A stretch of DNA of 64,000 nucleotides from a bacterium (GTDB lineage: Bacteria > UBA10199 > 2-02-FULL-50-16 > JAJFLM01), in the NCBI GenBank assembly GCA_965216315.1, contig CBDCFN010000016.1:1120001-1184000 (forward strand), read 5' to 3'. The position numbers and the translations under genes are program-made. The notes under the pieces were generated by a model, which saw only the letters and a program-made list of their open reading frames with translations, had not been told where the DNA came from and made no database searches. The number at the start of each line of letters is the position of its first letter. The stretch's first letter is position 1. Shown piece by piece: positions 1,168 through 23,233 of this stretch.

Positions 1168-1193
1168 GTGTCGGCGGGACGAGGTGATTGTTG
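1168..1193 (-). promoter_or_regulatory. Putative sigma28-like promoter CAAC-N15-CCGACAC
   Basis: Minus strand reads CAACAATCACCTCGTCCCGCCGACAC; same geometry as the copies at 1264 and 23208. Confidence 0.45.
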
Positions 1194-1263
1194 TGAGTGT
1201 CGCTGAGTTTCAGTGTACCTTGGTACACGCGGCTATTGTGTTAATTTCGAATATTTTCGCAAA

Positions 1264-1289
1264 CAACATATAGTAAGAAGGATCGATAA
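1264..1289 (+). promoter_or_regulatory. Putative sigma28-like promoter CAACATAT-N11-TCGATAA
   Basis: Same 8-mer and spacing as 23208-23233; 50 nt upstream of the orphan ATG at 1340. Confidence 0.55.
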
Positions 1290-1339
1290 GGGTCTCGTTG
1301 TCGCGGGAGAACAGTGCTTAATAAGGAAGGCAGAATTCT

Positions 1340-3682
1340 ATGCTTCAAGCTATTTCAGCGACAACAGTCCTCGCCAGTACCAGCTCCGGTGCAAGCTTTG
1401 CAATGACGGCCCCACAGCTCCTGGCCCGTCTCGATTCGAGCATCCTCTTTCAAGCCGATTTAAATCTTACGGAAACAGCTAGGTTGGCACAGCATATGTT
1501 GCAATTGGGCTCCGGTCCGGAGTCACTGGTGGGGCTGCTCAGCACACCTCAGGGAACTTTGCCACCATCGACGCGAAACCATCTGCGCAGTGAAGCCTTT
1601 CTCGCTACTGCGACGGAACCAGGTCGAACCAGTGCGTTAGAACGTTTCGTGCATCACTATTTAGATGTCCTTGATGATCCGGAACGGCGTCGAAGCATAA
1701 GCTCTGGTGGCGCCATGCCTTACAACTTCTTTCATTCACCTCCTTTATTTGACTATTCACCTCCGCCGGGAAATCCTTTTGGTGTGGCAAAGATCGATAT
1801 ACCGAGCACACCGTCAGTGCGATTCTCATCAGATGGCTATTATCGCTTATTCGGTTTCTCTTCTATGCCGGGGGCATTCCGAGTGATGGGGCAGTTGCGT
1901 GGTATGCGAGGTCGATCCTTGCGCTCGTTGGAGACCTTGGGGCCACTGCAGTGGGAAGGAGAGCTCTATGAAGGGGCGCTGTTTCCAAACGTCGAGTTAG
2001 TGCGTACGGCATGGCGACGTGAACCGAGCCCTAATGAGCAGGTTGTCTTTAAGGATATCCTCGACGTGATGCCGGCGGATATTTCGAGTCTCAGTGCGAT
2101 GGTGCGCGATGTCGATCGCCTTGATCTCAAGGCGCTGTCACCGGCACAGGCCCGCGAAGTAAGGCTCCTGGCCTGGGTCTTATATAAACTGGCCGATGAG
2201 CAGATGGCGCAGACCAATCGCAAGCGGGCCGAAGAATTGCTAACTGATGCCGTCAGCTTACTTGAGGCCTGGCAACGGGCACATCGAGAACATCAATTAA
2301 GTCTCGATCCATCAGTCGGCACTTTGACGGAAAGTGTCCTCGGTGTTTGGAGTGAGCAGAATGATATGTGGCAAATGCACAACCGGAGTATTGATGGGTT
2401 GATCGACGCCGCAACGAGCAGCTTAGGCCTCAGCGGGCGGCAATTGGGAGTCAGGCAGTTGAGTGGTGCTGCTGAAGTGGTCGCAAGCTATCTTATGATG
2501 GGATATCCCATGCTCGCGCATCAAATTCTGCACTATGACATTGAACCCCACTTAACGAGTCCGGAACAAAACGCAATGAGTCTCAGTGTCTTGCATTATC
2601 TGGGTCGTGATCTCGGCCAAGATGACTTTGATCCCCAGCGTCAAGAGGCGATGCGGCAGTTGAAGGCCCACGTTGAGGCCATTCATGAAAAGACTCACTG
2701 GCAGACCTATCAGTCGGCGGAATGGATGCCCAATACGGATGAGCGCGGTCGCAGCGTCTATCGTTGGAACGCGATTATGATCCGCAATATGGTCGTATCG
2801 ATGCGGACGTACTTGGGTTTGGATGCGGCCGATGAGAAAGAGATTTACGAAACGGCGAGTGGGGAACAATTGTTTCCCATCCAAGATGCGACCGATAGTT
2901 TGTATGCTCAACAGCAGGGGCTTGTTACTCTTTTTGAACATTATGATAATGCTGAGCCGGCTTCGGCCTATAGCGAGTATCGCGACCTAAACAATATCAA
3001 ACGTCAAGTGGAGCAGGCGCGTGCGTCATTGGCGAACAAGATCGAGAGCGCGCCAGCGTACCTTAGTGAGATATTCGCGTCACTGCTCGAGCAGATCAAC
3101 ACGACGCAAGTAGAATGGTTGGCGGCCTTTCCGGAGGGAAAGGGGCCGGCCGATATACTATCTCAGACTGGAAGACATTTTCTGGATGCCGCCCAGTTGT
3201 TAATGGATATGGGGGACAGTGGTGAGGCGCATGAGACGATTCTCAAGGCTGAGAAGTTGCTCGGCGAGGCGGCTCAAATGGATGCCGAACTCGTTGCTGA
3301 GCTTCTTGCTGCGGCCGAAGAGCTTCACATTGAGATTCATCTTGCGCGCGAGAGTCGATTGGTGCTGGGGACAGCTGGGATAGGCTATTATGGCAATGAA
3401 GACGGAATGGCCTCCTATGATCTCGGGACGCTGACAGGGCCTCGCGCTATAACAGCCGATTTTGATGCTTTAGGTGCATTTCATCATCCCGGTCCGTTCT
3501 TGTCAGCGCATCTAGTGGGAGGTGCTCGGATCAATCCTGCCACGCATGGTACTCGTGCGGGATTTACGGAAGGGGTTGGAAAGTACATCGTCAGAGTCAG
3601 TGACATGGAGGAAGCTCTCCGTAGGCTAAGTTTGGAGTCGTCTGAAGATGGCGGCGTTCAGGATGATGGCGACGATGATTAA
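1340..3682 (+). CDS. Hypothetical 780-aa protein, mostly helical, no recognisable domain
   Basis: Long ORF with AAGGAAGG upstream; Ser/Thr/Ala-rich N-terminus and acidic C-terminus. Confidence 0.7.
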   Translation: MLQAISATTVLASTSSGASFAMTAPQLLARLDSSILFQADLNLTETARLAQHMLQLGSGPESLVGLLSTPQGTLPPSTRNHLRSEAFLATATEPGRTSALERFVHHYLDVLDDPERRRSISSGGAMPYNFFHSPPLFDYSPPPGNPFGVAKIDIPSTPSVRFSSDGYYRLFGFSSMPGAFRVMGQLRGMRGRSLRSLETLGPLQWEGELYEGALFPNVELVRTAWRREPSPNEQVVFKDILDVMPADISSLSAMVRDVDRLDLKALSPAQAREVRLLAWVLYKLADEQMAQTNRKRAEELLTDAVSLLEAWQRAHREHQLSLDPSVGTLTESVLGVWSEQNDMWQMHNRSIDGLIDAATSSLGLSGRQLGVRQLSGAAEVVASYLMMGYPMLAHQILHYDIEPHLTSPEQNAMSLSVLHYLGRDLGQDDFDPQRQEAMRQLKAHVEAIHEKTHWQTYQSAEWMPNTDERGRSVYRWNAIMIRNMVVSMRTYLGLDAADEKEIYETASGEQLFPIQDATDSLYAQQQGLVTLFEHYDNAEPASAYSEYRDLNNIKRQVEQARASLANKIESAPAYLSEIFASLLEQINTTQVEWLAAFPEGKGPADILSQTGRHFLDAAQLLMDMGDSGEAHETILKAEKLLGEAAQMDAELVAELLAAAEELHIEIHLARESRLVLGTAGIGYYGNEDGMASYDLGTLTGPRAITADFDALGAFHHPGPFLSAHLVGGARINPATHGTRAGFTEGVGKYIVRVSDMEEALRRLSLESSEDGGVQDDGDDD

Positions 3683-4479: not shown

Positions 4480-4637
4480 GACACTGCGCAGCAAAGTAGC
4501 TGTTGGTCGGCGTGGCGTCAAATTTTAGACCGGGCCAAGGTGGATGCTCTTCATGCAGCAATTGAGATTAGTAATTGATTTTCCTCAGTTTTTAAGGTTT
4601 GCTGGGTCTTTGTCTTCAGGGAGTGAATTAAGGTATC

Positions 4638-5072
4638 ATGTTATTCGAAAAGGCCGTTTGGCTGAATGTAAAGACCGATATAGACGTCTTGCCCATCATC
4701 CATGACGTGAAGCTGGCGATACGCGAGTCCGGCGTTACGGAAGGGTTGTTAACGATCTATGTGCCCGATGGACGCGGTGCCATCATGATTGCCCCTGAAG
4801 GGATCGAAAAAGACCGAGAGTTTTTAAGGTGGCTCCGTGATTGGAGTACGGAAAAACCAAAAGCCAAGGAGGAAACGCCCAAAAGATTGTATCTCAGTCA
4901 TCTTTTTGGGGCGACGCAAACAGTGCCGTTAGTGAATAGTGAAATACGAATCAATCTCAACTCCTCAATCTATATGGTGGACTTTACGGAGGTTGAGACT
5001 CGGCGTGAGTTTCGGGTGGCTCTCTTCAGTGAGGCCCCCAAAGAACAACCACAGATTCAAAGGCGGCAGTAG
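4638..5072 (+). CDS. YjbQ/UPF0047-family protein, divergent
   Basis: Overall pattern (IRESGVTEGLLTIYVP ... SHLFGATQTVPL ... IYMVDF..RRE) fits YjbQ, but the conserved HxT and GTWQ motifs are absent. Confidence 0.6.
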   Translation: MLFEKAVWLNVKTDIDVLPIIHDVKLAIRESGVTEGLLTIYVPDGRGAIMIAPEGIEKDREFLRWLRDWSTEKPKAKEETPKRLYLSHLFGATQTVPLVNSEIRINLNSSIYMVDFTEVETRREFRVALFSEAPKEQPQIQRRQ

Positions 5073-5075
5073 TCT

Positions 5076-8855: not shown

Positions 8856-10406
8856 ATGGCGTATTTAGCCGCATTATTGAGTGGGCTGTTGCTGACGCTT
8901 AGCTTTACGACGGTTTTCAACGGCTTTCACCTGCCCGACTTATCGATCCTGGCGTGGATCGGACTTGTCCCCTTGATCGTCGTGTGTCGCCGCGCGCCGC
9001 TGCGACGTGTCGCTTTAGCTAGTTTTATCGCCGGGACTGTCTTTAACGCGCTCGTTTCTTATTGGATCTTTCACGCGATGAATCACTATGGCGGTCTGTC
9101 GCCGTTGGCGAGCCTGGCCGGCGTTCTGGCAATGGCGACGCTGCTCGGGGTGATGCAAGCGCTTATTTTCTGGTTGGTTTTCTGGCTAGAACGACAGGGG
9201 GCCGTCCCTTTGCTCTTCTTGTTGCCGTTTTTTTGGATGTTCAATGAGTGGCTGCGTAATTATGGCCCTTTTGGCGGCTATCCTTGGTCGCAGCTAGCCT
9301 ACAGTCAGGGAGGGCACTTAACGTTCGTTCAAATTGCCGATATCTTCGGAATCTACGGACTGAGTGCTTTGATCGTCTTTGTCAATTGTGTCATGGCGGA
9401 ACTCTGTCGATTTTTTACGAAGCAGCGGCGTTTTCCGGCAAGCGGAGTCGTGACCACCGTGCTCTTGTTGGTTGTGACGTACAGTTATGGCCACTGGCGA
9501 CTCGCATACGTTGAAGGCTGGGTGCAACAGGGGTCGTCAGTTCGGATTGGGATTGTCCAGCCGAATATTCCGCAGGAATTAAAATGGCAGCCGGTACAGG
9601 CTGCTAAATCAGTACAGACATTAAAAAAGTTGACTCAAGAAGCTGTGGATCAAGGGGCAGAGTTTGTTCTGTGGCCGGAATCGGCCTATCCGGATTTGTT
9701 GCCGAGCAATTTGGCTGAGCTTTACGATCTGGCGGAGAGTTCCGTGACTATTTTGACGGGAGCCGTCAGTGTCATCTCGGAAGAGGGTATTGATCGTCGC
9801 CGGCCGGCGATCCGGAACAGCGCTTTTCAGTTTTCCCCTGGAGGGATGACGACCGGGATTTATAGCAAGACACATCTCGTCCCCTTGGGGGAATATGTGC
9901 CTTTAAAGAACGTGCTCAGCTTTTTGGATAAGGTTGTCCCTTCAATTGGCGATTTCCATGCGGGGACGACCTTAAATCTGATTGAGTGGAATAAGTATAA
10001 ATACGGCGTGACAATTTGTTATGAAGATCTTTTCCCGGAAATCAGTCGAGAATTTGTCGCTAAGGGAGCCGATTTTTTGACGAATGTGACCAATGACGCC
10101 TGGTATGGAGACTCATCGGCGCAGTGGCAGCATTTAGAGTTCTCGCGCTTTCGTGTCATTGAAAACCGGCGTCCCATGTTGCGAAGTACGAATACGGGTG
10201 TGTCCGCCATCTATGCCGCGAGCGGGAGAACTATCGAGCAATTGCCCCCGTTTCAGGAGCAGCTGATGGTCAAGGATGTTGTCTTGGGCGGACCCAATTC
10301 GTTTTATACCCGCTTTGGTGACGTCTCGATCTTCGTTGTCATGGGATTCGTGCTTGCAATTATGGTCGCCATTAAGAATATTAGGCAGCGCGATGTCACT
10401 GGGTGA
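8856..10406 (+). CDS. lnt: Apolipoprotein N-acyltransferase
   Basis: WPESA, KTHLVPLGEYVP, ICYEDLFP, TNDAWYG, RSTNTGVS. Confidence 0.95.
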   Translation: MAYLAALLSGLLLTLSFTTVFNGFHLPDLSILAWIGLVPLIVVCRRAPLRRVALASFIAGTVFNALVSYWIFHAMNHYGGLSPLASLAGVLAMATLLGVMQALIFWLVFWLERQGAVPLLFLLPFFWMFNEWLRNYGPFGGYPWSQLAYSQGGHLTFVQIADIFGIYGLSALIVFVNCVMAELCRFFTKQRRFPASGVVTTVLLLVVTYSYGHWRLAYVEGWVQQGSSVRIGIVQPNIPQELKWQPVQAAKSVQTLKKLTQEAVDQGAEFVLWPESAYPDLLPSNLAELYDLAESSVTILTGAVSVISEEGIDRRRPAIRNSAFQFSPGGMTTGIYSKTHLVPLGEYVPLKNVLSFLDKVVPSIGDFHAGTTLNLIEWNKYKYGVTICYEDLFPEISREFVAKGADFLTNVTNDAWYGDSSAQWQHLEFSRFRVIENRRPMLRSTNTGVSAIYAASGRTIEQLPPFQEQLMVKDVVLGGPNSFYTRFGDVSIFVVMGFVLAIMVAIKNIRQRDVTG

Positions 10407-11491: not shown

Positions 11492-11542
11492 AGAGATGAT
11501 CTCGCCTGTTGACTCGCGTTAACAGATAATCCCCACTGTTCA

Positions 11543-11570
11543 CAACGCAAAACCCGCAAATTCTCGATAA
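11543..11570 (+). promoter_or_regulatory. Putative sigma28-like promoter CAAC-N17-TCGATAA (paralog 1)
   Basis: Same spacing as the copies at 17403 and 20291. Confidence 0.5.
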
Positions 11571-11646: not shown

Positions 11647-14364
11647 ATGTCACATCGCATTAAAGCAATATTTTCTTCAATTTCACTGCTACTGGTTATT
11701 TTTGCCTTTGCGGCCTGTCAGGACGTCGCTTCGGACTCGAAGTCCGACACAGCCAGTGATGAATCGGTTGGAATCAATATTGTCGGCGAGGATGGTATCG
11801 TTATCGGAGATGCCCCGCAGAGTAATGAAAATGTTGCCGATCCGGTCCAGGCCACCGCGGTCGATCCATGCGAATGGTCCAAGGACGCGGTCACGTTTGA
11901 GGCGACCGGACCTATTTATAAGAGTAGTACCTTTCAAGGGACGCAGGATACCTCGACGACGTTGAGTTGGACGGTTAATACGAATTGTACGCCTTCAAAA
12001 TTAATTATTGAGAGTTTTGATGGGAGTAGTTCAGAATACAGTGGGGCGAAGGCTCAAAGCTGGACCAAGCAGATTCCGGCTTTGAGCCAGAGTGCCACGT
12101 TTAAGCTCGTTCTGCTTTATAAGAAAAATAATCAGAGTACTGTTGTACTGGAGAAATCCATCGAGGTGCCCGTGATCGTGATGGAAGATACCTTTGATGT
12201 CAGCGTAACGGCTTGCAATAATGAAACTTCAACAGAATCAAAATGCGAGCTAAACACCAATCTGACCCCTCAAAACGACTATAAAGATCCGAGCGATTAT
12301 CTCGTTACTTTTTCGATGACGAATGATCCTGAACTGAAACTCTGCATCCGTTCGCCTCATGCGGGAATTGAAGCTCAAGCCAGCAACTTCGATTGGAAGG
12401 GCTTATTTATTAAGCAGGCCTATGCGGAATACAATGAGTTGGCCGTCGTCAAAAAAGAATTTGTTTCTAATAAAGGGTTTGCCAATAAGACGGTTATGCA
12501 ACTGCATCCTGGATATTTCTATAATGATCCGGCGCCGTCACTTGGTACGGTGGTCGGAAAGGTCGAATGCTTTGATGAAAATAATATGACCATGAGTGCG
12601 GACGGCACGCAGTTGATCGGACAATTTGAATTTAAGGCAACGGCGAGCACGGACATCGTCTACTATGCCGAGCGCGCTGGTGTGAAATTCATGGAAGCGA
12701 CGATTCCGCTGAAGGTCAAGATTATCCATCCTTCATCCGTTCTCGACGTGAAACGGGCGATCCCCGGCGTAGGTGCCAAAAACTACGACTTGGTCTTGGA
12801 AGAAGACAGCCCGGTTCTGGAGTTCAAAGTGAAATTAAGTGACGGGGAGCACTTTGCTTTAGTTACTGATGCGACGGATAAACTCTATTCAGAATCGACC
12901 TGGACCGCGAGCAGCGCGAATATGGAAAAAATCAACGGACAGAGCAGTGCGACGCCACCGCCGGCTGCAAAGGAAGCAATATGCAAGATCGATAGCGAAG
13001 GGTCATACGGGAATAGCGACTGTAAGGACAAAGGCTATGATCAAAATTTTATCGAGAAGGTCCAAAAAGTTTTTCCGAAGCGCAAGGTTCACGTCTTTAA
13101 ATTCAATCAGCACGATCTCGAAGAGACCTATTACTACGCGCGAGCGATCGCCTTTGATACGAAGTCAGCATTTATCGGATTCGGTTATGGTGATTATCTG
13201 AGGGTCGGTGTGGTTGAAAATGAAGGTCTGCCCGCCCCTCAAATTCGTTTTGCGGCCTCAATGGGTGTCGGAACGGATTATAAGAGCGTTGATTACTTCT
13301 GCACAGATGACTTTAGAAAGAAGATCTTTGAAGGGCCGACTCAAGCATCGATAGCCGGTAAATCGAGAGGGCTTAAGTCACTGACAGTAGAGCGGACCGG
13401 TTGCAGTGCCTCCGGTAATTCTTCCGTCAACGACGTCTATGGCGAAGAGGGTGTCTTCGATTTCCATTCGACCTGCCATTATAATAGTTTGAACCCGGGT
13501 TGGACCCTGACGGCGGTTGATTTCTTGGGTAAAACCCACACGAAGACCTGTAAATATGCGGCGAGTGGTTGGCCTATCTACGTTACGCTCGAAGGAGATA
13601 TTGGCAATAACATCGGTACGGATCACGTCGCGTTTAAGGTGGACAAGCACGAGCAGGGCGGCCCGAATCCCTATCTAGCGACTAAATTCGAAGCCGTCTC
13701 AGGCCATAGCTGTACCATTACGAATGGAGGGGAACAGGATTGGACCGATCCGAGAGATTATGCGGATCATATTGCGCCCGGCATCACGAATGTCGGTTTG
13801 AATTGCTGGAAAGCGCGTCTCAAGGTCAAAATGATTGACGGGAAATGGTATTACGTTCGCTTTAGCGCGGCGACGGCCAACGATAGTCTAAAGAGCAACG
13901 GTTATGTGTGGGAGGCGACGCAGCATCAACACTGGGCGACCTCCCTCAGTGGGAAAAGCGAAAGCCAAAAGGCGCGCTTTACCCTGACGTTTCCGCCGCC
14001 GCTTAAATTTGACCTGGTTGGCCATAAAGGGACACTCCCTTGGGGAGATAAGATCACCACGTGTGGCTACCTGTCTGACGACGATCTGGCCGGATACGAC
14101 CTGCATGCCTTTGCACGGGCCTTCTATTTCGACGGCAAGCACGTGACGAAGGTGAGTTGCGGCTGCACGGGAGGATGTACGGGCCAGGGAGGTAATTTGC
14201 TCAACGTCAGCGATGCCGAGTCGTTTGCGAATGAAGACGTTGGTTTCGTATGGGCGGGTGAAAAAGACGGGGGCGGTCGTTGGGATTTTACCTGTACGGC
14301 CACCGGTGTCGCCGGACAGGAAATAAAACGAGATTTTCATTGGTCTTGTCCCAATAAGGACTAG
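11647..14364 (+). CDS. Large Cys-rich multi-domain lipoprotein, paralog 1
   Basis: Signal peptide ending in lipobox FAAC; STTLSW Ig/PKD-like pattern; start may be 11629 or 11647. Confidence 0.8.
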   Translation: MSHRIKAIFSSISLLLVIFAFAACQDVASDSKSDTASDESVGINIVGEDGIVIGDAPQSNENVADPVQATAVDPCEWSKDAVTFEATGPIYKSSTFQGTQDTSTTLSWTVNTNCTPSKLIIESFDGSSSEYSGAKAQSWTKQIPALSQSATFKLVLLYKKNNQSTVVLEKSIEVPVIVMEDTFDVSVTACNNETSTESKCELNTNLTPQNDYKDPSDYLVTFSMTNDPELKLCIRSPHAGIEAQASNFDWKGLFIKQAYAEYNELAVVKKEFVSNKGFANKTVMQLHPGYFYNDPAPSLGTVVGKVECFDENNMTMSADGTQLIGQFEFKATASTDIVYYAERAGVKFMEATIPLKVKIIHPSSVLDVKRAIPGVGAKNYDLVLEEDSPVLEFKVKLSDGEHFALVTDATDKLYSESTWTASSANMEKINGQSSATPPPAAKEAICKIDSEGSYGNSDCKDKGYDQNFIEKVQKVFPKRKVHVFKFNQHDLEETYYYARAIAFDTKSAFIGFGYGDYLRVGVVENEGLPAPQIRFAASMGVGTDYKSVDYFCTDDFRKKIFEGPTQASIAGKSRGLKSLTVERTGCSASGNSSVNDVYGEEGVFDFHSTCHYNSLNPGWTLTAVDFLGKTHTKTCKYAASGWPIYVTLEGDIGNNIGTDHVAFKVDKHEQGGPNPYLATKFEAVSGHSCTITNGGEQDWTDPRDYADHIAPGITNVGLNCWKARLKVKMIDGKWYYVRFSAATANDSLKSNGYVWEATQHQHWATSLSGKSESQKARFTLTFPPPLKFDLVGHKGTLPWGDKITTCGYLSDDDLAGYDLHAFARAFYFDGKHVTKVSCGCTGGCTGQGGNLLNVSDAESFANEDVGFVWAGEKDGGGRWDFTCTATGVAGQEIKRDFHWSCPNKD

Positions 14365-14377
14365 AGATACGCAGCTG

Positions 14378-14425
14378 AAGACACTTGTCTTATGCTATGC
14401 AGACATTGTCTGAATCTGCTATGAT
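14378..14425 (+). promoter_or_regulatory. Two AGACA/TGTCT palindromes and an extended -10 (TGCTATGAT) upstream of paralog 2
   Basis: AAGACA-CT-TGTCTT 14378-14391; CAGACA-T-TGTCTG 14400-14412; TGcTATGAT 14417-14425. Confidence 0.4.
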
Positions 14426-14437
14426 AGTGGAGACCAG

Positions 14438-17371
14438 ATGGAAATGTCGCACCGCGTTAAAACATTTTTCTCTCTATCCTCTGCATTTATCCTGATTTTA
14501 GTGCTGGCTGCCTGCGAGATCGAGCGTGGGCTTACTTTAGACAAGGTCGAGCCCGCTCAGGCGATGCCGGGATCCGTTGTTCGGCTTATCGGCGGTGGTT
14601 TTAATGATCTGAATCAGTTGGAGGTGAAACTCGGCGAAACGCCGGTGGCCTTTGCCGAAGAGACCGCTCAACTGGTCAGTCAGGGCGAGGATGATTATAA
14701 GGGGAATGAGATTGCCGTGCGCGTGCCTGCGCAATTACCGCTAGGGTCCTACCTTTTTAGCGTGAAGAGCGGAGAGGAAGTCGCGACGCTCCCGTTTACG
14801 GTGGGCGCGGGCGGAGGTGCGATCGTTATCGATCCGGCAGCCGGGGAAGATGAGGCCCCCCAGCCAAGCGAGAGCGAAGACGAACCGGTGCAGACGGCCA
14901 CCATAGATCCCTGTGAGTGGCCCGAAGAAGCGGTCGATTTTCAAGCGACCGGACCGATTTACAAGAGTAGCACGTATCAGGGCGACCAGGACACGTCGAC
15001 GACGCTGAGTTGGACGGTTAATACGAATTGCACGCCCTCCAAGCTGATCATCAAGAGTTTTGACGGCAGCACCTCGGAATACAGCGGAGCCAAGGCCCAA
15101 AACTGGACCAAGCAGATCCCGGCGCTGAATCAGACGGCTACTTTTCAGCTAATCCTTATGTATAAAAAGGACAATGCGAATACCGTCGTGCTGGAGAAAT
15201 CGCTCGAGGTTCCGGTCGTTGTGATGGAGGAGGCCTTCGACGTAAAGGTGACGGCGTGTAATAAGGCAACCTCCACGGAAACGAAGTGCGATCATAATAC
15301 GAATTGGACGCCGCAGAATAATTACCAGGATCCCAGTGATTATGTGGTGACTTTTTCGATGACGAATGATCCAACGCTCAAGCTTTGCATACGCTCCCCG
15401 CATGCCGGCGTTGAATCCCAGGCGCGCCACTTTGATTGGAAAAATCTCTTCATCAAGGAGGCCTATGCTATTTCCAATGATCTGCAGGTTATTCACCAGA
15501 AAGGGTTTATTGAAAAGGGATTGAAGCACAAGGGCAATTTGTACGTATTTCCAGGTTTATCTTATAACGATCCGCCCCCATCGGTCGGAACGGTCGTCGG
15601 TAAGGTCGAGTGTTTTGATTCGAATAATATGCTCGTGAGTCCGGATGGGAAGCTGTTGACCGGACAGTTCGAGTTCAAGGCGACGGCAAGCACGGACATC
15701 GTCTACTATGCTGAGCGCGACAGTGTGAAATTTATGGAAGCGACGATTCCGCTGAAGGTCAAGATTATCCATCCTTCGTCCGTTCTCGACGTGAAGAGGG
15801 CCATTCCCGGTGTTGGCGCCAAAAACTACGACTTGGTTTTGGAAGAAGATAGTCCGGTATTAGAATTTAAAGTAAAATTAAGTGATGGTGAGCAATTTGC
15901 CCTGGTGACCGATGCGACGGACAAGCTTTATTCAGAGGCCACTTGGACCGCTAGCGACGCGAATAAAGAAAAAATCAATGGTCAGAGCAGTGCGGCGCCG
16001 CCGGGGGCAGCGAAGACAGCGACGTGTAAGATCATGAGTAGCGAAGAGACTTCCGGTGCGAAGAACTGCAAGAATCATGGCTATGATGAAGCCTTCATTG
16101 AGAAAGTCCGCAAGGTCTTGCCTAAGCGCACAGTTCATGTCTTCAAGTTCGCCGTCAACGAACAATCCGAAACCTATTATTACGCCAAGGCGATGGCCTT
16201 TGACACCAAGACGGTGGCGCTGGGTTTTGGTTATGGCGACTATTTGCAGGTCGGGACGGTGAGTGAGGCCGGTCTGCCGGCGCCGCAAGTTAAATTTAGC
16301 GGGATGCCGGAGTTCGGGGCCGCTTACCATGACGTCGATTCTTTTTGTACGACGGCATTCAAGAATGAACTCTTCAAGGGCAATCTGTCGGCCATGATGA
16401 CCGGTGAGACGCGGGGGGCGAAGTCGTTTAAAATTACGCGGACCGGTTGTAAGTCGTCCGGTATCGCATCCATCAATGATCGTTATGGTGAAGAGGGAGT
16501 CTTCGACTTCAGCTACGAATGTAATTATGACGGCATGAATCCGGGCTTCAACGTCGAGATGGTTGACTTCCTTGGTGTCAAACGGACGGAGACCTGCAAA
16601 TTTAATGTCAAGATGTGGCCGATGGAATTAAAATTGACCGGTCATTATGATGGCGACAGTACGTCTGATCGGCATGATTTCTCGATCGAAAAAATCGAAC
16701 AGCCGGGCCCGGATCCTATAAAAACAATCGAAGTGCGCCGGGTGCACAATGCCTGTAGTGGGGCGTTCCTCAATAATCCGGTCAATGTCGAGGATAGCCG
16801 GGATTTTTCGCGTACGTTCAGCGTAGAAGGGAAGGGTATCGACTGCTGGCAAATCGGGGTCAAGGTCGGAACCCTCGAAGGGACAAAGTGGGTAAAATGG
16901 AACACCAGCAGTAAGTCAGTCAAAAACATTGGTAAGAAGTGGACAGCGACAGGGTGGAGTTCTTCGCGTGGCAATAGTGAGACGATCTTTTTTCCGCCGA
17001 AATTAGAATTTAGTGGTGACTTTGGCAGTGCTCATTGCTGGTGGGAAACCTCCTGGGGGGACGAAGAACTCGTCAAGGGCGAGTTTAATTGGACCTATTC
17101 AGGAAGGCATATCAAAGATGTCTCCTGTAGTTGTAATAACGGTGCAAATAAGGTCTCCGGTACTGTCGGTAATATCAAGGCCGAGAAAGAGAATGGGCAG
17201 ACACTTGGCTATCGATGGACCGGTGGGACCGATAATGAAAAATTCTGGGATTGTAGCTGTACCGCGACAGGCTATGGGGATCAGGGTGATCGCTCAAGTT
17301 CATGGTGGGCCTGTTGTGACGGTGATGAACATGATGAGAGTGGACAAACTCCCTGCGGTAATAAGCGGTAA
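14438..17371 (+). CDS. Large Cys-rich lipoprotein, paralog 2, with extra N-terminal IPT/TIG-like domain
   Basis: Lipobox LAAC; LTLDKVEPAQAMPGSVVRLIGGGF...IAVRVP...LPFTV is an IPT/TIG pattern; 56-aa stretch identical to paralog 1. Confidence 0.8.
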   Translation: MEMSHRVKTFFSLSSAFILILVLAACEIERGLTLDKVEPAQAMPGSVVRLIGGGFNDLNQLEVKLGETPVAFAEETAQLVSQGEDDYKGNEIAVRVPAQLPLGSYLFSVKSGEEVATLPFTVGAGGGAIVIDPAAGEDEAPQPSESEDEPVQTATIDPCEWPEEAVDFQATGPIYKSSTYQGDQDTSTTLSWTVNTNCTPSKLIIKSFDGSTSEYSGAKAQNWTKQIPALNQTATFQLILMYKKDNANTVVLEKSLEVPVVVMEEAFDVKVTACNKATSTETKCDHNTNWTPQNNYQDPSDYVVTFSMTNDPTLKLCIRSPHAGVESQARHFDWKNLFIKEAYAISNDLQVIHQKGFIEKGLKHKGNLYVFPGLSYNDPPPSVGTVVGKVECFDSNNMLVSPDGKLLTGQFEFKATASTDIVYYAERDSVKFMEATIPLKVKIIHPSSVLDVKRAIPGVGAKNYDLVLEEDSPVLEFKVKLSDGEQFALVTDATDKLYSEATWTASDANKEKINGQSSAAPPGAAKTATCKIMSSEETSGAKNCKNHGYDEAFIEKVRKVLPKRTVHVFKFAVNEQSETYYYAKAMAFDTKTVALGFGYGDYLQVGTVSEAGLPAPQVKFSGMPEFGAAYHDVDSFCTTAFKNELFKGNLSAMMTGETRGAKSFKITRTGCKSSGIASINDRYGEEGVFDFSYECNYDGMNPGFNVEMVDFLGVKRTETCKFNVKMWPMELKLTGHYDGDSTSDRHDFSIEKIEQPGPDPIKTIEVRRVHNACSGAFLNNPVNVEDSRDFSRTFSVEGKGIDCWQIGVKVGTLEGTKWVKWNTSSKSVKNIGKKWTATGWSSSRGNSETIFFPPKLEFSGDFGSAHCWWETSWGDEELVKGEFNWTYSGRHIKDVSCSCNNGANKVSGTVGNIKAEKENGQTLGYRWTGGTDNEKFWDCSCTATGYGDQGDRSSSWWACCDGDEHDESGQTPCGNKR

Positions 17372-17402: not shown

Positions 17403-17430
17403 CAACTCTACACATTCAACAAACCGATAA
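17403..17430 (+). promoter_or_regulatory. Putative sigma28-like promoter CAAC-N17-CCGATAA (paralog 3)
   Basis: GCAACTC...ACCGATAA; same flanks and spacing as 20290-20318. Confidence 0.55.
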
Positions 17431-17538: not shown

Positions 17539-20268
17539 ATGGCAAAGCTTACTTGTCAGGGCCTCGCCCTGTTGTGTGTTTCCCTTACCTTGATTCTCAC
17601 TTCCTGCCTTAAACCCGCGAATGACAATGATAATAATAAGCCCATTATAAGCGAATCAGCGGACGGTGATCTTGGGGTCGAGGTGAGCGGTCTTCCCGAG
17701 TCGGGTGCGATTGATGTCGATCCTGTGGTTGGAGATGAAGGTGAGGCGAGTAGCCCTCAGGCGACGGTTGTTGAACCTCCCTGCGAATGGCCCGCCGAAG
17801 AGATTTCCTTTGCCGGAAACGCCCCGGTTTACAAGAGTAATGCGGTCGATGAAACCGCTCAGGATCTCTCCACGCAGCTGAGTTGGAACATCACCACCGG
17901 ATGCGCTCCGGATAAAGTTATTATTACAACCCCTCATGGGACGTCCGAGTATGCGGGGGCGCGTGCGCAGAGCTGGAGTAAGGATATCCCCAAACTTGAG
18001 GAGACGACGAGCTATACGCTGGTTATCATTCACAAGAACGAAGTCGTGCATGAAGAATCAGTTGAGATTCCCTTGGTTGTTATGGAGGATAACTTTCAAG
18101 TTTCAGTTACGGCTGTCAACAAGGTAACCGGCAGTCAACATATGAGTTGGACGCCCCAGCAAAATTACCAAGATCCACGCACTTATAAAGTCAGCTATTC
18201 TTTTAGCGCCGAGCTCGATAAGGTCTGTATCCGTTCGCCTCACGGGACGGCGCCGTCGCGCTTTCAGCAGAATAGAAATCTTCGGCCGCAACAACGTCAA
18301 TTGGATCGTCATGATTTCGAGCTCCAGGAAGCGATTATTCAGAATCGCCTGAGCCGCTGGATAGGCGATGCTCTGATTGGCGTTGCTCATGCCGCTCCGC
18401 TCCAAGTTGATCCTCTCTATGCGGCGGTCGTTTGGGTCGATGGAGCGCCCAAGGCACCGACAGTATCGGGATATGAGGAGTGTTTCGGCAAGGATGACTC
18501 CGTGCTCGATGCCCAGGGAAAGAATTACGAGGGTGAGTTCGAATTTGAATTGAATGGCAGTACGGCGATTGAATCCTACGGCATGCTCAATGGCGTCAAA
18601 ATATTTGAAAAGTCAACGCCGCTCAACGTGACGATTGTTAAGCCGTCTTCCGACTTTGCAGCGAAACGCGCGATCCCCGGTGTCGGTGCCAAACACTATG
18701 ATCTCGTCGAGAATGGACTGAGCTCGGTCATCGAATTTAAAGTCGAATTTAGTGATAGCGTGCAGGCCGCGCTCGTAACCGACGTGGCAACGAAGCTGTA
18801 TTCCGAGTCGACTTGGACGGCGAGTGACACGAATATGCAAATCATCAATGGGACCCAGGCCGGTACGTTGCCGGCGGCGAAGTCTGCGGTGTGCGATATC
18901 GATCCCGATGCGGCGTCAACCTCGTCCACAATCAAACCATGCACGGACGCCGGCTTTACAGCCAACTTTATCGATAAAATAAAGACGACTTATCCTAATC
19001 GTCACATGAATGTTTTCAAATTCAATGTTCATGATCTCGCCGAAAGTTACTATTATGCCAAGGCCTCCCAGTTTAAGACCAAGTCTGCCCTGGTCGGTGT
19101 TGGCTATGAAGATTATTTGCAGCAGAGCGAAACGGAAGCGACAGAAATCCCTGAGCCGGGCATTCGCTTTACTCCCACGGCCGAGTACAGCAGTGATTAT
19201 GTTGGAGTCAATAATTTCTGTTCCAATGGTTTTAAGAATACCCTTTTTGCGGGAGCGCAATCCGCAATATTGGCCGGTGAGACGCGCGGCGTTAAATCGA
19301 TGGAAATCCGGCAGACCGGTTGCGATTCCAATCAGGGTAGCACGGATGTTCATCCCTACTATGGTGAACCCGGAGTGATCAATTTTAATTCTAAATGTTT
19401 CTATGACGGGATGAATCCAGGTTACACCGTGACGACAGAAGATCTCCTTGGGAATGAAACGAATACGACCTGCAAATTTAACGTGACGATGTGGGACATC
19501 AAACTGCAGCTGACCAGCAAAACCGATAACCTGCTAGAAGATCGCTATGGCTTTAAGCTTGAAAAAATCGAGCAACCGGGCCCGGATCCGATCAAAGAGC
19601 TTAAAGTTGTCAAAGTTGACAGCCATTGTGGTGGGGCCTTTCTGAATACGGCTGTCAATGTCGAGGATGATCGCGATTACGAGCGTACTTTTGATGTAAC
19701 GAACCAAGGGGTTGATTGTTGGAAGATTGCCGTCCAGGCAAAGACTTACGACGGTTGGAAGTATGTCACTTGGACGACGCATAGCCAGCAGGTCAAAAAT
19801 ACCGGCTACCAATGGCATTCAAAAAGCATTAGCAAAAATACCCGTGGCAATAATGAAACGGCTTTTTTCCCGCCGCGTATGCATATCGATAAGTGGCAAC
19901 GGACATCGAGTCAGTGTTGGAGCACATTTACGTATATTGGTGCTTGCAGCATAGCGTGCACTATCTGGAATGAGAAGATTGATAAGTACGAAGCCGATTA
20001 CAAGCTGAGTGGACGCCATATCGACCGTTTGGAAGTGACCTGCAATCGCGGCTCACTAAGCGGCGTGAGTGTCAGCGGAAGCGACCGAGAGCGCTTTGTG
20101 GATAAGGCTCTCAGCTATAGTTCCAATGCTAACTCGGATGTGCGTACGAAGATTAAATATGATTGTGAAGTGACGGCCACGGGGGTCGGTGATCAGCCTA
20201 AATTAACCCGGTCGTTTGCCCGGTGGGCCAAAGCTGAAGGGAATTCGTGTACGATGGGGAATCAATAA
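17539..20268 (+). CDS. Large Cys-rich lipoprotein, paralog 3
   Basis: ATG 17539 after GGAG; lipobox LTSC; shares CIRSPH, KRAIPGVGAK and KLYSESTWTAS with paralogs 1 and 2. Confidence 0.8.
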   Translation: MAKLTCQGLALLCVSLTLILTSCLKPANDNDNNKPIISESADGDLGVEVSGLPESGAIDVDPVVGDEGEASSPQATVVEPPCEWPAEEISFAGNAPVYKSNAVDETAQDLSTQLSWNITTGCAPDKVIITTPHGTSEYAGARAQSWSKDIPKLEETTSYTLVIIHKNEVVHEESVEIPLVVMEDNFQVSVTAVNKVTGSQHMSWTPQQNYQDPRTYKVSYSFSAELDKVCIRSPHGTAPSRFQQNRNLRPQQRQLDRHDFELQEAIIQNRLSRWIGDALIGVAHAAPLQVDPLYAAVVWVDGAPKAPTVSGYEECFGKDDSVLDAQGKNYEGEFEFELNGSTAIESYGMLNGVKIFEKSTPLNVTIVKPSSDFAAKRAIPGVGAKHYDLVENGLSSVIEFKVEFSDSVQAALVTDVATKLYSESTWTASDTNMQIINGTQAGTLPAAKSAVCDIDPDAASTSSTIKPCTDAGFTANFIDKIKTTYPNRHMNVFKFNVHDLAESYYYAKASQFKTKSALVGVGYEDYLQQSETEATEIPEPGIRFTPTAEYSSDYVGVNNFCSNGFKNTLFAGAQSAILAGETRGVKSMEIRQTGCDSNQGSTDVHPYYGEPGVINFNSKCFYDGMNPGYTVTTEDLLGNETNTTCKFNVTMWDIKLQLTSKTDNLLEDRYGFKLEKIEQPGPDPIKELKVVKVDSHCGGAFLNTAVNVEDDRDYERTFDVTNQGVDCWKIAVQAKTYDGWKYVTWTTHSQQVKNTGYQWHSKSISKNTRGNNETAFFPPRMHIDKWQRTSSQCWSTFTYIGACSIACTIWNEKIDKYEADYKLSGRHIDRLEVTCNRGSLSGVSVSGSDRERFVDKALSYSSNANSDVRTKIKYDCEVTATGVGDQPKLTRSFARWAKAEGNSCTMGNQ

Positions 20269-20290
20269 GCGACCGCGCTACGGTCATTAG

Positions 20291-20318
20291 CAACTCCAGC
20301 GGACCCATTGACCGATAA
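20291..20318 (+). promoter_or_regulatory. Putative sigma28-like promoter CAAC-N17-CCGATAA (paralog 4)
   Basis: GCAACTCC...ACCGATAA. Confidence 0.55.
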
Positions 20319-20439
20319 GGGAATGGGTGCGAAATTTTCTACTCGTAAGTTGCATTTAACACCCGATTTGCGTCCTTGATTTCATCATAGAATATCAAAG
20401 GAGGCTATGTAATAATATTCAGGATACTCGGGAGGTTGT

Positions 20440-23190
20440 GTGACGTCGCTACGCTTTTTTATCTTATTATCCCTCATTATGGGCCTTACGGCCTGCTCCG
20501 GTGCGAAAAAATCGGAGGTAAACGATCCGGGGGTGACCGTCAGTCCGGGCGTCGATATTGTCACTCCTGATTCCACGGAAAGTGAGGAGGCGGAAGAAGA
20601 ACCTGCCATCCAACCCGATGCGCCTGCCGCGATTGACCCCGATGAATTTAAGAATGCGATGTTGGTTGCGGACCCCGCCACGGTCTATGTCGGGCAAGGA
20701 GAGGAAGTCAAAAAGACCGGTGGCTCGACGACGCTCAAATGGGGCATTGAGGGTGAATTTGATAAGATCGCCTTCGTGCGTAAGGCGGATCAATCGATTA
20801 TTTTCGAGACGACCCAGGGTTCTTCCGAGAAAGAAACCGGCCTGCTTTATGAAACGACGACGGCCGTCATGAAGGTTAAAAAACAAGGCCAGTGGTTGGA
20901 TGGTCCTGAAGTCGTGATTGAGGTGGAGAAGGTCTCTGACCTCTATCCATTGAACGTTGTTGTGACCCCCTATCCGGGCCGCCTGCCGCCGGGACAGGAT
21001 ACCCGCAAAATGGAAGCGGCTTTTATGGTCGCCAATAATTTTTACGATAAGATCTGTATCAAGGTCGGTTCCCTGAGCAAGCATCAGCCGCCGAATGGCG
21101 GCAAGTTGACGATGTCTTTGATCGGCTTTCAAGTCGTGGTACCGACGGAGCCGTTGTTAGAAGATATCACCAAGTGTTTTGACAAGCCGGCGGACCCGGA
21201 CCAGCCTTTCGTCGGTTCGGTCGAGTTTACGCCCGAGCCGCTGGACGCGGACAAGACGCAAAAAATGGTGCCGGTGCATATCTGGGGGTTTAAGGGCGAA
21301 AAGAAATACTATCAGAATGTCTCGTACGGAGTACTCAGACGGGTGCCGCCCTCGGTCGATCTGCGCGTTGCGCGCACGGTGCCGGGAGGGGACGCGGAGC
21401 TCAAAGATCTTTTTCTGACGGGCTTTACCAACGTGCTTGAAATGCACGTCGAGGCCCAATATCTGCAGGATCTCTACATTGTGACTAATGCGGCGGATAA
21501 ACTGTACAACGAGGCCTATATTCAGGCGGACCCGGTCCATCCGCCCAAGCGAAAAAACGTCAATCCTATTCTCAACGAACACTGTCAGGTCTCTTTGCAA
21601 AAACCGGGCGGCGAGCTTGGTAAAGTCACTAACGCCGGCAATCAGTGTCCCGCTGTCGTCAAGACCGTCTTGGGTCAGCGTATCAAGGGCTATGAAGGTC
21701 TATTCTCCGTGTTTAAAATCAGTAAAGGCGGGGCTGGCGGCGTGATGATGAGCCAAGGGGGTGTCAGCGGCTTGAAGGCGAATACGCAGCCGCAGCAGCA
21801 ACAAGCGGATACGCCGAGCCCGACGCAACTGGCCCTCAACGCGCAAGGGAGTCTGGCTCCGGTCAGGCTCTACGTACCGGCGACGCGTGATTTTAATACC
21901 TTTGTCATGGTCTTAGGCATTGCGGCCGACGATAAGAAGGTCGCTGAGGCGGTGCACGAGGCCCTGCCGACGCCGGACTGGGAAGAGTTGCTCTCGATCC
22001 CCGACGCCGAATGGATGGAGAAGTTTCAGAATCAGGCTCCTTTCGTCGAGTTTAACGTGCTCAACGTCGGCCGAGTCGATAAGGCCAAGGCCGAACACCT
22101 CAACCCCGACAGCTGTTCGGGTGAGCTGGAAGTGAAAACGCCGGCTAACATGAAGAATGCGGTCCGCTTCACTTTGCGTTGTACGGTTACCGGTGACAAG
22201 GAACTTGGCTGGAAGGTGACCGTTCCGACCATATTGGGTGGCGACAAGAAGCAGACGAAGATTATTCGCTATTCGATGCGTGATTGGCGTTTCAAGATCA
22301 AGCTGAAGGAAATCGTCAAACAGGACGGTGCTCCCAAGGGCTTTGATCAGATCACTTGGGAGGTCAAGGCGGATCCGCCGCCTGGAGCGATTGGCGGCGC
22401 GGGCCCGGGCCCGAATCCCTTTGAGAAGATCAGAATGGTTCCCTATCGAATCAGGGAGTACGATACCAATGACCGCTTTTGTACGGGCTGGGATGACGAG
22501 GGTTACAAATTTACCGAGGCCGGTGAGTCGCGACTCTTTACGTTTAAAAATTATGGCTTGAATTGCCATAGCTTTAAGTTGCAAGGGCGCCGCATTGGCA
22601 AGGCGGAGTGGGAGGACTTTCCCGCCAAAGAAGTGTCGAAGGAGTTGCACAAATATGTCACGGAAGGGCCGGGCTCCCTTCACAATTCGACGATAGAGGC
22701 GCGCCCGGCACCGAGCCTTACCTGGAAGGAAGAATCGGTTAATTGTGAGTGGGAAGAAGTTTGCGACGAAGATGATTGTGATAAGTATATGCATGCCTGC
22801 TGGGGGTGTTTCGGGGGGCCCTTGGCATGCGCGATCGCGTGTGGGATAGGTGTTAAAAAGCGCAACGATTGCCGGGACAACATTGAATGTCATCAGGAGC
22901 TTATCGGTGAGCGCAAGGTCAAGATTGAGGCGGAACACATCCAGACGATGAATGTTCTCGCTTTGGAGTCTCCCGACGATCACGATGATATCCAGCATGG
23001 CGGCAGTGACTACTGTGATCTGCTCAATCGAGAGCTCGACGACTATTTGGAGAAGATGGAGTATGTCAAAGACGAATTCTCTCACCCCGCGTTCGAGGAA
23101 GAGTTTGCCTGTAAGCTCTATTTGCGGGGGGCCGGCGGCCATCCCTCGGTTGAGACGGTTGTCTCGTCCGGCAAATGCACTCCAAACTAG
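20440..23190 (+). CDS. Large Cys-rich lipoprotein, paralog 4 (most divergent)
   Basis: GTG after GGAGG; lipobox LTAC; ADPATV..G.STTLKW Ig/PKD-like pattern; homologous motifs DKICIK/KCFD, ARTVPG, ADKLYNE, GPGPNP, GLNC. Confidence 0.78.
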   Translation: MTSLRFFILLSLIMGLTACSGAKKSEVNDPGVTVSPGVDIVTPDSTESEEAEEEPAIQPDAPAAIDPDEFKNAMLVADPATVYVGQGEEVKKTGGSTTLKWGIEGEFDKIAFVRKADQSIIFETTQGSSEKETGLLYETTTAVMKVKKQGQWLDGPEVVIEVEKVSDLYPLNVVVTPYPGRLPPGQDTRKMEAAFMVANNFYDKICIKVGSLSKHQPPNGGKLTMSLIGFQVVVPTEPLLEDITKCFDKPADPDQPFVGSVEFTPEPLDADKTQKMVPVHIWGFKGEKKYYQNVSYGVLRRVPPSVDLRVARTVPGGDAELKDLFLTGFTNVLEMHVEAQYLQDLYIVTNAADKLYNEAYIQADPVHPPKRKNVNPILNEHCQVSLQKPGGELGKVTNAGNQCPAVVKTVLGQRIKGYEGLFSVFKISKGGAGGVMMSQGGVSGLKANTQPQQQQADTPSPTQLALNAQGSLAPVRLYVPATRDFNTFVMVLGIAADDKKVAEAVHEALPTPDWEELLSIPDAEWMEKFQNQAPFVEFNVLNVGRVDKAKAEHLNPDSCSGELEVKTPANMKNAVRFTLRCTVTGDKELGWKVTVPTILGGDKKQTKIIRYSMRDWRFKIKLKEIVKQDGAPKGFDQITWEVKADPPPGAIGGAGPGPNPFEKIRMVPYRIREYDTNDRFCTGWDDEGYKFTEAGESRLFTFKNYGLNCHSFKLQGRRIGKAEWEDFPAKEVSKELHKYVTEGPGSLHNSTIEARPAPSLTWKEESVNCEWEEVCDEDDCDKYMHACWGCFGGPLACAIACGIGVKKRNDCRDNIECHQELIGERKVKIEAEHIQTMNVLALESPDDHDDIQHGGSDYCDLLNRELDDYLEKMEYVKDEFSHPAFEEEFACKLYLRGAGGHPSVETVVSSGKCTPN

Positions 23191-23207
23191 GGGTGCCTTA
23201 TATTTAG

Positions 23208-23233
23208 CAACATATTGGCGATGAGGCCGATAA
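23208..23233 (+). promoter_or_regulatory. Putative sigma28-like promoter CAACATAT-N10-GCCGATAA
   Basis: Perfect FliA-type -10 GCCGATAA at 23226-23233, with GCAA 15 nt upstream. Confidence 0.65.

Follow-up and report, generated by a model that had tools for sequence, protein, structure and literature searches.

Which factor reads the promoter-like boxes that precede scattered accessory genes in a mostly housekeeping stretch of a UBA10199 genome, and into what kind of regulon do they place these genes? The stretch, hereafter the window, comprises 64,000 nucleotides (positions 1,120,001 to 1,184,000 of the forward strand of contig CBDCFN010000016.1, assembly GCA_965216315.1). An earlier note on this DNA had described six sites resembling sigma-28/FliA promoters, in which CAAC and a CGATAA-type -10 element are separated by 15 or 17 nucleotides (N15 and N17), upstream of three orphan genes and three lipoprotein genes. 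We propose that the six sites are instances of a genome-wide promoter, gCAAC-N15/16/17-NCGATAA, that would be read by the lone sigma-28-like factor encoded within a gene cluster for type III secretion (T3SS), as a flagellum-style late switch for the secretion machine, its cargo and surface proteins. We assign this reading a probability of about 0.78.

A predicted genome-wide promoter

All six sites were recovered with the coordinates, strands and spacings originally claimed. An exact-match scan of the intergenic DNA of the window (16 stretches of at least 30 nt, 2,065 bp) returned six matches, exactly the six boxes, compared with a mean of 0.016 and a maximum of 1 in 5,000 dinucleotide shuffles. 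All six precede accessory genes, and the motif is missing upstream of the housekeeping genes, as had also been stated. The window is mostly housekeeping in content, with a Pfam family in 43 of the 44 non-accessory proteins; among the 7 accessory genes, 6 have no Pfam family and one has a weak tetratricopeptide repeat (TPR) match. When window positions were ranked with an independent matrix built solely from 170 sites of other genomes, the sites ending at 17430, 23233, 20318 and 1289 took the first to fourth ranks, in this order, and the one ending at 11570 was joint 8th. The minus-strand site (1193-1168), with the -10 element CCGACAC, is weak, scoring 12.1 bits by the genome's own matrix and falling outside the top 20 of the independent one; a similar -10 element, GCCGACAT, is found in the Escherichia coli aer sigma-28 promoter (PMC2859248). 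Three additional matches in the window are all intragenic (N15 at 30689-30664, N14 at 54696-54672 and N16 at 13291-13265).

The genome that holds the window (G000; 2.96 Mb, 98.3% complete) contains 90, 31 and 30 exact matches to CAAC-N15/16/17-NCGATAA, respectively, and 7-16 with spacers N13, N14, N18 and N19. In its non-coding DNA (492,844 bases, with genes called as the longest open reading frames, ORFs), the extended motif gCAAC-N15/16/17-NCGATAA occurs 69, 21 and 21 times, against 0-3 times with the other spacers from 10 to 23. Thirty shuffles of the same DNA gave spacing-class means of 0.7-1.4, that is, about 1, with a maximum of 5, which bears out the genome-wide enrichment anticipated in the earlier note. 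A gene lies directly 3' of 108 of these 111 sites. With a matrix trained on the G000 sites, and hence partly circular, 244 of 2,453 ORFs have a site at 12 bits and 189 at 15 bits; once off-spacer matches are subtracted, the regulon is estimated at ~185-210 genes. The scattered orphans and the lipoprotein array of the window would, as originally suggested, be joined in this single large predicted regulon by a sigma-28-type promoter. Of the 83 strict targets scanned (of 107), 62, or three quarters, are without a Pfam family. A search of the open-access literature, with subscription papers and supplements outside its scope, returned no account of the motif or of a UBA10199 T3SS or its sigma factor.

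The -10 element is NCGATAA, with C favoured at N and G favoured before it, and fits the sigma-28 -10 element GCCGATAA, but the -35 element, gCAAC(T/A)TT, does not match its sigma-28 counterpart TAAAGTTT. The E. coli sigma-28 consensus is TAAAGTTT-n11-GCCGATAA (PMC2859248), and with GCAACTTT aligned to TAAAGTTT, N15 reproduces exactly the E. coli geometry (8-n11-8), N16 being 1 bp and N17 2 bp longer. An ATG follows 5-10 nt past the site in 17 of 66 N15 cases compared with none of 19 N17 cases (p=0.01), which suggests that many N15 transcripts are of the leaderless type.

The sigma factor and its T3SS cluster

Five sigma-70-family factors are encoded in G000, namely RpoD, RpoH, two extracytoplasmic function (ECF) factors and one FliA-like protein; in addition, a helicase bears a sigma region-4 domain. 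The single sigma-28-like gene (G000:C16:350511-351410) is located between sctJ and sctL/N in a non-flagellar T3SS cluster that includes sctV/D/J/L/N/O/Q/R/S/T-like genes, an FHA/SctD-like protein, SctP, FliO and SycD-like chaperones, with SctU encoded elsewhere. The injectisome core is present, i.e., the export gate SctRSTUV, the ATPase SctN, SctJ, SctL and SctQ. In profile searches of G000, SctV scores 806 bits against a cut-off of 692; several other cluster proteins are under their family cut-offs, and SctN, SctS and SctO score equally high or higher on flagellar models. The two SycD-like chaperones (E 1e-19 to 1e-21) are also below cut-off and are flanked by proteins without a family match. 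By profile search, flagellin is missing from G000 and SctV/FlhA is matched by a single protein; rod and hook families were not searched.

Of all families, TIGR02479 matches the FliA-like protein best, at 133 bits, short of the curated cut-off of 189.6. Sigma regions 2 and 4 are both present and region 2.4 is of the FliA-like RI(R/K)G...D type; the recognition helix of region 4.2 differs from that of FliA (SKSWTSRLH in G000 versus TESRVSQIH). The form SKSW(T/V)SRLH is conserved in all 12 aligned homologues and E(S/A)R(V/I)SQ in all 9 flagellar FliAs. This combination fits a retained -10 and an altered -35 specificity. The T3SS-linked sigma factors and the canonical FliAs, which share 24-29% identity, form separate clades (97/97 support). 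Uncultured Deltaproteobacteria, several of them titled UBA10199, encode relatives of the G000 factor at 48-82% identity, and in the loci of these relatives the next T3SS gene adjoins the sigma gene in 43 of 47 cases, with sctN reached in 39. In four loci (L018, L019, L021 and L027), an N15 site is found on the opposite strand ~250 nt before the sigma match, where an antisense RNA or a small divergent gene is possible.

Distribution in the phylum and in flagellated relatives

The distribution of the motif was analysed in 61 genomes, likely of UBA10199, with the reversed pattern as control; as these genomes are kin and not independent, they represent one conserved system rather than 61 tests. 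N15 is found in all 61, with 19-107 copies compared with 0-8 for the control; the respective ranges are 5-42 and 0-13 for N16, and 6-30 and 0-7 for N17, with N16 or N17 close to the control level in a few genomes. The totals are 3,008 for N15, 969 for N16 and 855 for N17. One full-length TIGR02479 match in the 117-150 bit band, the score band and not synteny being the basis on which the T3SS sigma was assigned across genomes, is present in 59 of the 61 genomes and partial matches in the other two. SctV matches were identified in 60 genomes, 55 of them above cut-off. The outgroup G062 yielded no match to either the motif or the control and is therefore uninformative.

Canonical FliA and flagellin co-occur in the same 9 of the 61 genomes. 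The association with flagellin that the earlier note had envisaged is not seen: G000 has no flagellin, and the motif precedes none of the 9 flagellin genes of the flagellated relatives, so a flagellar regulon was rejected. In 6 of these 9 flagellin leaders there is a TAAAG/TTAAG-like...CCGTT site instead (L109 and L112-L116), with CCGTT in place of CCGATAA. Because the motif is absent from flagellin leaders and present in all 61 genomes, it follows the T3SS sigma and not the flagellar FliA. It appears as if the flagellar FliA had shifted its -10 element and the T3SS sigma its -35 element, keeping the two regulons apart. Taken together, the sigma-28-type -10 element, the 8-n11-8 geometry and the co-occurrence of motif and sigma in the 61 genomes favour assignment of the motif to the sigma factor of the cluster rather than to an ECF factor, and this sigma very probably reads it.

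Spacing and gene class

Two spacing classes had been recognized in the window. N15 and N17 are indeed real, but there are three spacings, and since N16 is about as numerous as N17 both in G000 and in the phylum counts, strict bimodality was rejected. The spacing of orthologous T3SS promoters was scored with a flat spacer prior of 12-20. The gene that follows the sctD-linked ORF and encodes a needle-like protein has N17 at 23 of 24 orthologous promoters, and the promoter after sctJ has it in 30 of 32 loci, with spacer letters that vary freely in both cases. After sctT, N17 is found in 9 of 30 loci and no site in 18. Sites are lacking upstream of the sigma gene in 36 of 39 loci, sctL in 37 of 40, sctO in 29 of 33, sctQ in 23 of 24 and sctR in 28 of 30. 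The motif precedes the needle-like, post-sctJ and chaperone-flanked genes, and not the sigma, export or ATPase genes.

The N17 sites show a stricter gCAACT(T) and, in the T3SS loci, also have an A-tract on their upstream side and a T following CGATAA; a TTT run is found in 2 of 33 N17 sites versus 58 of 152 N15 sites. No conserved sequence or palindrome was detected inside the 51 N17 spacers of the T3SS loci. Upstream of 13 of 217 G000 promoters there is a TGTT-N10-AACA palindrome (N15 8/152, N16 3/32, N17 2/33), which, being found in all three spacing classes, was rejected as the cause of N17. This palindrome is centred 27 nt 5' of the -35 box in 9 of the 13 cases, and two precede DUF4423 genes. 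At sigma-70 promoters, negative supercoiling favours long spacers, about twofold per base (PMC9303308). In this system, supercoiling or a bound factor could be the means by which the spacing difference is sensed.

Spacing had further been claimed to track export class, and in G000 the two do correlate. Using a hydrophobicity rule of our own, applied blind to spacing, we called signal peptides in 8 of 69 N15, 4 of 21 N16 and 10 of 21 N17 targets (p=0.0009). Among the matrix targets, lipoproteins account for 13 of 34 with N17 and 8 of 171 with N15 (p=6e-7), these 21 proteins belonging to 17 families. In the relative G061, signal peptides were called in 10 of 25 N17 targets (all sites; one is an evident false positive) and in 4 of 30 N15 targets (of 34; p=0.03), and a homologue of the window lipoproteins retains an N17 site.

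The LAS leader and predicted cargo

Many N15 targets begin with an uncharged, Ser/Thr/Leu/Ala-rich N-terminus that ends in [LVI]LAS[S/T]. The rule for this LAS leader was drafted from N15 targets and then run on all ORFs, which identified 61 proteins in G000, 23 among the 197 high-scoring genes and 38 among the 2,256 others (p=5e-11). All 33 LAS proteins with a promoter of at least 12 bits use N15. After exclusion of two doubtful cases, the 59 LAS proteins consist of 53 unrelated bodies; 33 of the 47 scanned have no Pfam family, and the other bodies include a hybrid histidine kinase, Ser/Thr kinases, malic enzyme, an amino-acid dehydrogenase, an aromatic amino-acid lyase, a carboxylase and an acyltransferase. 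One body shows a weak sigma region 4. For the dehydrogenase, the malic enzyme and the RtcB target, a second genomic copy exists. The leader is also found in G061, in 5 of 30 N15 and none of 25 N17 targets. A cassette of promoter plus secretion signal pasted onto new genes would be expected to leave such a pattern, in a manner comparable to the terminal reassortment of effectors. On balance, we somewhat favour the view that LAS proteins are T3SS substrates.

The targets also include Sec-exported proteins, DUF4423 regulators and enzymes. A scan of 130 predicted targets at E 1e-4, which took in 83 of the 107 strict targets and 47 leader proteins, found no ankyrin, leucine-rich repeat, F-box or U-box families; what it did find includes HEAT and TPR families, Ser/Thr kinases and a multidomain carboxylase. 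The multidomain protein (L244:304-8067; G000:C16:1632121, minus strand) is a 2,588-aa acetyl-CoA-carboxylase-like protein with a biotin ligase domain and an LAS leader. The helicase with sigma-70 region 4 (L132:477-3470; G000:C16:91474-94539) has an N15 site 8 nt before an ATG and an uncharged N-terminus; it may be cargo aimed at the polymerase of another cell. A tandem array of ~12 signal-less orphans, often with a Cys-rich N-terminus and each with its own N15 site, is located at G000:C16:2163001-2202000 (L129/L139).

The needle-like protein and a candidate anti-sigma factor

The needle-like (SctF-like) gene (L001:12385-12936; G000:C16:347385-347936) encodes a protein of twice the usual length, with a long glycine-rich middle. 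Of the 12 PDB sequences matched by a profile of its last 60 residues, 11 are chains of T3SS needles, which align at the very C-terminal end (best E 7e-4; PrgI and MxiH at E 0.05-0.6; chain 7y6c_F was taken as a needle peptide from its sequence). The gene is followed by one for a TPR chaperone with a CdsG-like match, a gene order that we take to resemble Chlamydia cdsD-E-F-G; a PDB search with the TPR protein encoded upstream returned generic TPR matches only. In a similar Atlas cluster, 11% of the members carry PF09392 (0.91, a recognition value just under the tool's mark), and a homologue search with the needle-like profile gave 15 unnamed matches. Most of the similar Atlas clusters bear the label Myxococcota, a group whose T3SS has been described as lacking a needle.

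Between the post-sctJ gene and the sigma gene, 25 loci have an ORF of 99-143 aa whose N-terminus is of low complexity and which is part of a predicted N17 operon. When the small protein of one locus in a relative (L021:9091-9426) was modelled in complex with the sigma factor, the score was 0.75, against 0.00 for the best of 3 controls; the mark used was reached by 116 of 157 solved pairs and 2 of 215 mismatched pairs, counts that hold roughly because our own alignments were used. The runs share at least 45% of contacts, the pLDDT of the partner is at least 58, and the modelled contacts fall mainly on sigma residues 87-131. The model supports the idea that this small protein binds the sigma factor. 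The structure of the FliA-FlgM complex has been solved; the L021 partner has no sequence likeness to FlgM, and searches of the PDB and Atlas with the candidate gave nothing named. We raise, tentatively and with somewhat more doubt than conviction, the possibility that it is a secreted anti-sigma factor.

A proposed late switch for a secretion machine

In the scheme that we favour, the housekeeping polymerase would first make the basal body and the sigma factor, which would then transcribe the ~185-210 genes for the needle, translocators, surface proteins and cargo. N15 would drive most of the signal-less orphans, LAS proteins included, and N17, two bases longer and with a stricter -35, would drive the gene for the needle-like protein, the operon after sctJ and a large number of lipoproteins. 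Secretion of the small protein encoded upstream of the sigma gene would tie the switch to the finished state of the machine, in the manner of flagellar FlgM. We take the two lengths to stagger one regulon in time, with N17 promoters acting early (building and surface coating) and N15 promoters late (cargo), a step for which the odds are close to even, slightly against.

A bolder version, which we regard as unlikely, makes the spacer itself the switch: the small protein, while inside the cell, would have the sigma factor read N17 (needle, translocon, surface lipoproteins), and on its export the free sigma would read N15 and 100+ cargo genes would fire. The secretin-less, early-type T3SS of the whole phylum would then keep a sigma-28 checkpoint, the 'needle-less' Myxococcota might share the needle-like subunit, and the LAS cassette would send kinases, metabolic enzymes and sigma-region-4 domains into another cell, possibly bacterial prey.

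Several observations weigh against the late-switch scheme. A dedicated T3SS secretin, SctC, which would provide a route across the outer membrane, was not found in G000: the sole unambiguous secretin there, GspD, belongs to a type II secretion operon, and a further 253-aa protein matches only weakly. Of 23 relatives, 5 show one secretin match each. At 98.3% completeness, an overlooked sigma factor is unlikely, though conceivable. The needle-like protein alone has no Pfam or NCBIfam needle match, and its fold model is poor (pLDDT 57) and has no Foldseek match. No FlgM family (PF04316) match was found in G000, the candidate anti-sigma has none either, and its positional counterpart in G000 (L001:15010-15369) does not align with the modelled family.

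The remaining points concern spacing and leader. The phylum totals describe a skewed range without two peaks, and G000 itself deviates from the orthologous pattern: its needle-like gene has N16, while the post-sctJ site is N17 and the post-sctT site N15. An N17 match falls within sctL coding DNA in 7 of 39 loci, which may be coincidence; in L018, L021, L022, L023 and L030 it is at the 3' end of sctL, just 5' of sctN, where it could be an internal promoter or could have arisen by chance in coding sequence. The tie between spacing and export class is partial and weaker in relatives: a signal peptide is present in 8 of 69 N15 targets and went uncalled in 11 of 21 N17 targets, the rule visibly misses in both directions, collapsing paralogs weakens the link to p=0.037, and in G019 the difference, 9 of 28 N17 (all) versus 5 of 30 N15 targets (the first 30 of 62), is not significant (p=0.22). 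Finally, 28 of the 61 LAS proteins have no site of at least 12 bits, the leader was not found in the 58 G019 targets and so is not phylum-wide, and shared descent of the cassette could be another source of the all-N15 result.

Alternative explanations

The competitor that survives best, improbable as we find it, accepts the same sigma factor and posits a general host- or prey-contact ('attack-phase') regulon like that of Bdellovibrio, in which the T3SS would be one client among many, most orphans would be something other than T3SS cargo, and the spacer would set promoter strength only. The span of the targets, from lipoproteins and Sec-exported proteins to DUF4423 regulators and enzymes, agrees with this, as do the abundance of N16, equal to that of N17, the lack of a T3SS secretin and the similarly broad Bdellovibrio FliA regulon (92/140 attack-phase promoters; PMC3627812). 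It does not account for the retention of N17, despite varying spacer letters, at 53 of the 56 orthologous promoters of the needle and post-sctJ genes, for the all-N15 leader class, or for the fixed place of the sigma factor in the T3SS cluster.

We consider it highly improbable that, for N17 promoters, the same sigma depends on an activator that binds DNA and corrects the long spacer, or that these promoters have a different -35 register; this explanation bears on the spacing step alone and is compatible with the sigma assignment. MerR-like activators are of this long-spacer-correcting type. The stricter gCAACT(T) of N17 sites, their upstream A-tract, the T after CGATAA and the rarity of TTT (2/33 versus 58/152) would be in line with such a factor, but the 51 N17 spacers are free of conserved sequence and palindromes, and the upstream palindrome is found in all classes.

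Still harder to credit is the possibility that an ECF sigma or a transcription factor reads the motif and the adjacent sigma-28 gene is coincidental. G000 does encode two ECF factors, and the T3SS of Pseudomonas syringae uses the ECF sigma HrpL (PMC3879358); the -10 element and the 8-n11-8 geometry are nevertheless of the sigma-28 type (PMC2859248), the 17 of 66 N15 sites located 5-10 nt from an ATG are what is expected of a core promoter with leaderless-type transcripts, and each of the 61 genomes, kin as these are, has both the motif and the sigma.

The suggestion of the earlier note that two sigma-28 paralogs serve one spacing each deserves next to no credence: a second, canonical FliA exists in 9 of 61 genomes and G059 additionally shows a partial match on a separate contig, but a lone fliA-like gene is present in G000, the canonical FliA accompanies flagellin, whose promoters are without the motif, and N15 and N17 are both enriched in the 52 of 61 genomes without canonical FliA, so that a single sigma is enough for every spacing.

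Genes and sites of the window

The window begins with a pair of predicted N15 targets on opposite strands. The orphan gene at 470..1126 (minus strand; 218 aa, no Pfam family, no signal peptide) is preceded by the weak promoter-like site CAAC-N15-CCGACAC (1168..1193, minus strand; 12.1 bits by the genome's own matrix). The site CAAC-N15-TCGATAA (1264..1289, plus strand), supported by the motif scan and the independent matrix, precedes a 780-aa orphan gene (1340..3682, plus strand) without a Pfam family, whose product has an LAS leader at the N-terminus and is candidate T3SS cargo. Farther along the window, prfB (10400-10620) has its usual programmed +1 frameshift site (CTT TGA) ahead of the ORF at 10607.

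The lipoprotein array, like all the following features on the plus strand, starts with an N17 promoter-like site (11543..11570; motif scan and matrices), 5' of which a TGTT-N10-AACA-type palindrome (11507..11524, strand not applicable), a candidate operator, is centred 27 nt from the -35 box. Lipoprotein 1 (11647..14364; ~905 aa) has a lipobox and no Pfam family. Lipoprotein 2 (14444..17371) is without a motif of its own (best score -0.8) and is likely co-transcribed with lipoprotein 1; a homologue in G061 carries an N17 site. The stretch 5' of lipoprotein 2 (14365-14443) contains an extended -10-like element, TGCTATGAT, in place of the sigma-28-like motif. The N17 site with the top score in the window (17403..17430; motif scan and matrices) precedes lipoprotein 3 (17539..20268; 909 aa, no Pfam family), which has a relative in just 1 of 20 related genomes searched, and another N17 site (20291..20318; motif scan and matrices) precedes lipoprotein 4 (20440..23190; 916 aa). 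The N17 sites are thus present before the three lipoproteins named in the earlier note, but the fourth lipoprotein, described there as a paralog, is only a distant relative by sequence comparison: lipoproteins 1-3 are mutually 36-54% identical, and lipoprotein 4 matches them over a stretch of 58-72 aa only (E ~1e-6). The last site, CAAC-N15-CCGATAA (23208..23233; motif scan and matrices), precedes an orphan gene with an uncertain start codon (23261..24811), a predicted N15 target with one weak C-terminal TPR and no signal peptide.

Comparison with known systems

For a phylum without a cultured member, a near-universal T3SS together with a predicted promoter that lists ~200 co-regulated genes in each genome would provide a sequence key to lifestyle. 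The system also bears on the origin of the injectisome from the flagellum, given that the sigma-28 layer and a needle-like subunit appear to have been kept and the secretin is absent; the presence of a flagellar-group sigma in a T3SS fits this descent. If true, a single alternative sigma with spacer length fixed by gene class would be an unusual way to order a regulon.

The closest parallel in promoter architecture is the FliA class 3 system of E. coli and Salmonella, which shares the CGATAA -10 element, the N15 8-n11-8 geometry, a group-3 sigma in a type III export cluster, and the placement of sites before late structural genes and not before basal-body genes. It differs from the system described here in that the latter has a gCAAC(T) -35 element, an altered recognition helix, no flagellin or FlgM-family gene, a conserved class with a 2-bp-longer spacer and ~200 genes. 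In the deltaproteobacterial relative Bdellovibrio bacteriovorus, FliA (TTAAG-N16-CCGATA) likewise is a sigma-28 whose regulon has grown large and takes in proteases and surface proteins as well as unknowns (PMC3627812, PMC12622784), but it is the flagellar FliA, with a canonical -35, whereas here a separate paralogue is tied to the T3SS and the flagellated relatives keep their own FliA, which has a different promoter.

The hrp-box of P. syringae HrpL resembles the present motif in being an alternative-sigma box found on T3SS structural genes, scattered effectors and non-effectors (PMC3879358). HrpL is an ECF sigma with another box, and here the sigma is a group-3 FliA-like factor. As in a HrpL-type regulon, the predicted boxes precede T3SS structural genes, with the orphan targets being only candidate effectors, and the predicted box could serve to list T3SS cargo as the HrpL box does.

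The T3SS* of Myxococcus xanthus (MXAN_2434-2464) and the early-branching 'Myxo' T3SS are similar in their SctD/J/Q/RSTUV/N/L set, several LcrH-like chaperones and no dedicated secretin; T3SS* acts in prey lysis (PMC10433427, PMC3459982). MXAN_2437 was named in no paper found by the open-access literature search, subscription literature being outside its scope. The Myxococcus system is described as having no needle or translocon homologues, whereas here a needle-like subunit and chaperone-flanked candidate translocators carry the promoter. In Chlamydia trachomatis, sigma-28 is similarly kept in a flagellum-less bacterium with a T3SS, but it binds two late genes only (hctB and tsp) and no T3SS genes (PMC12282069).

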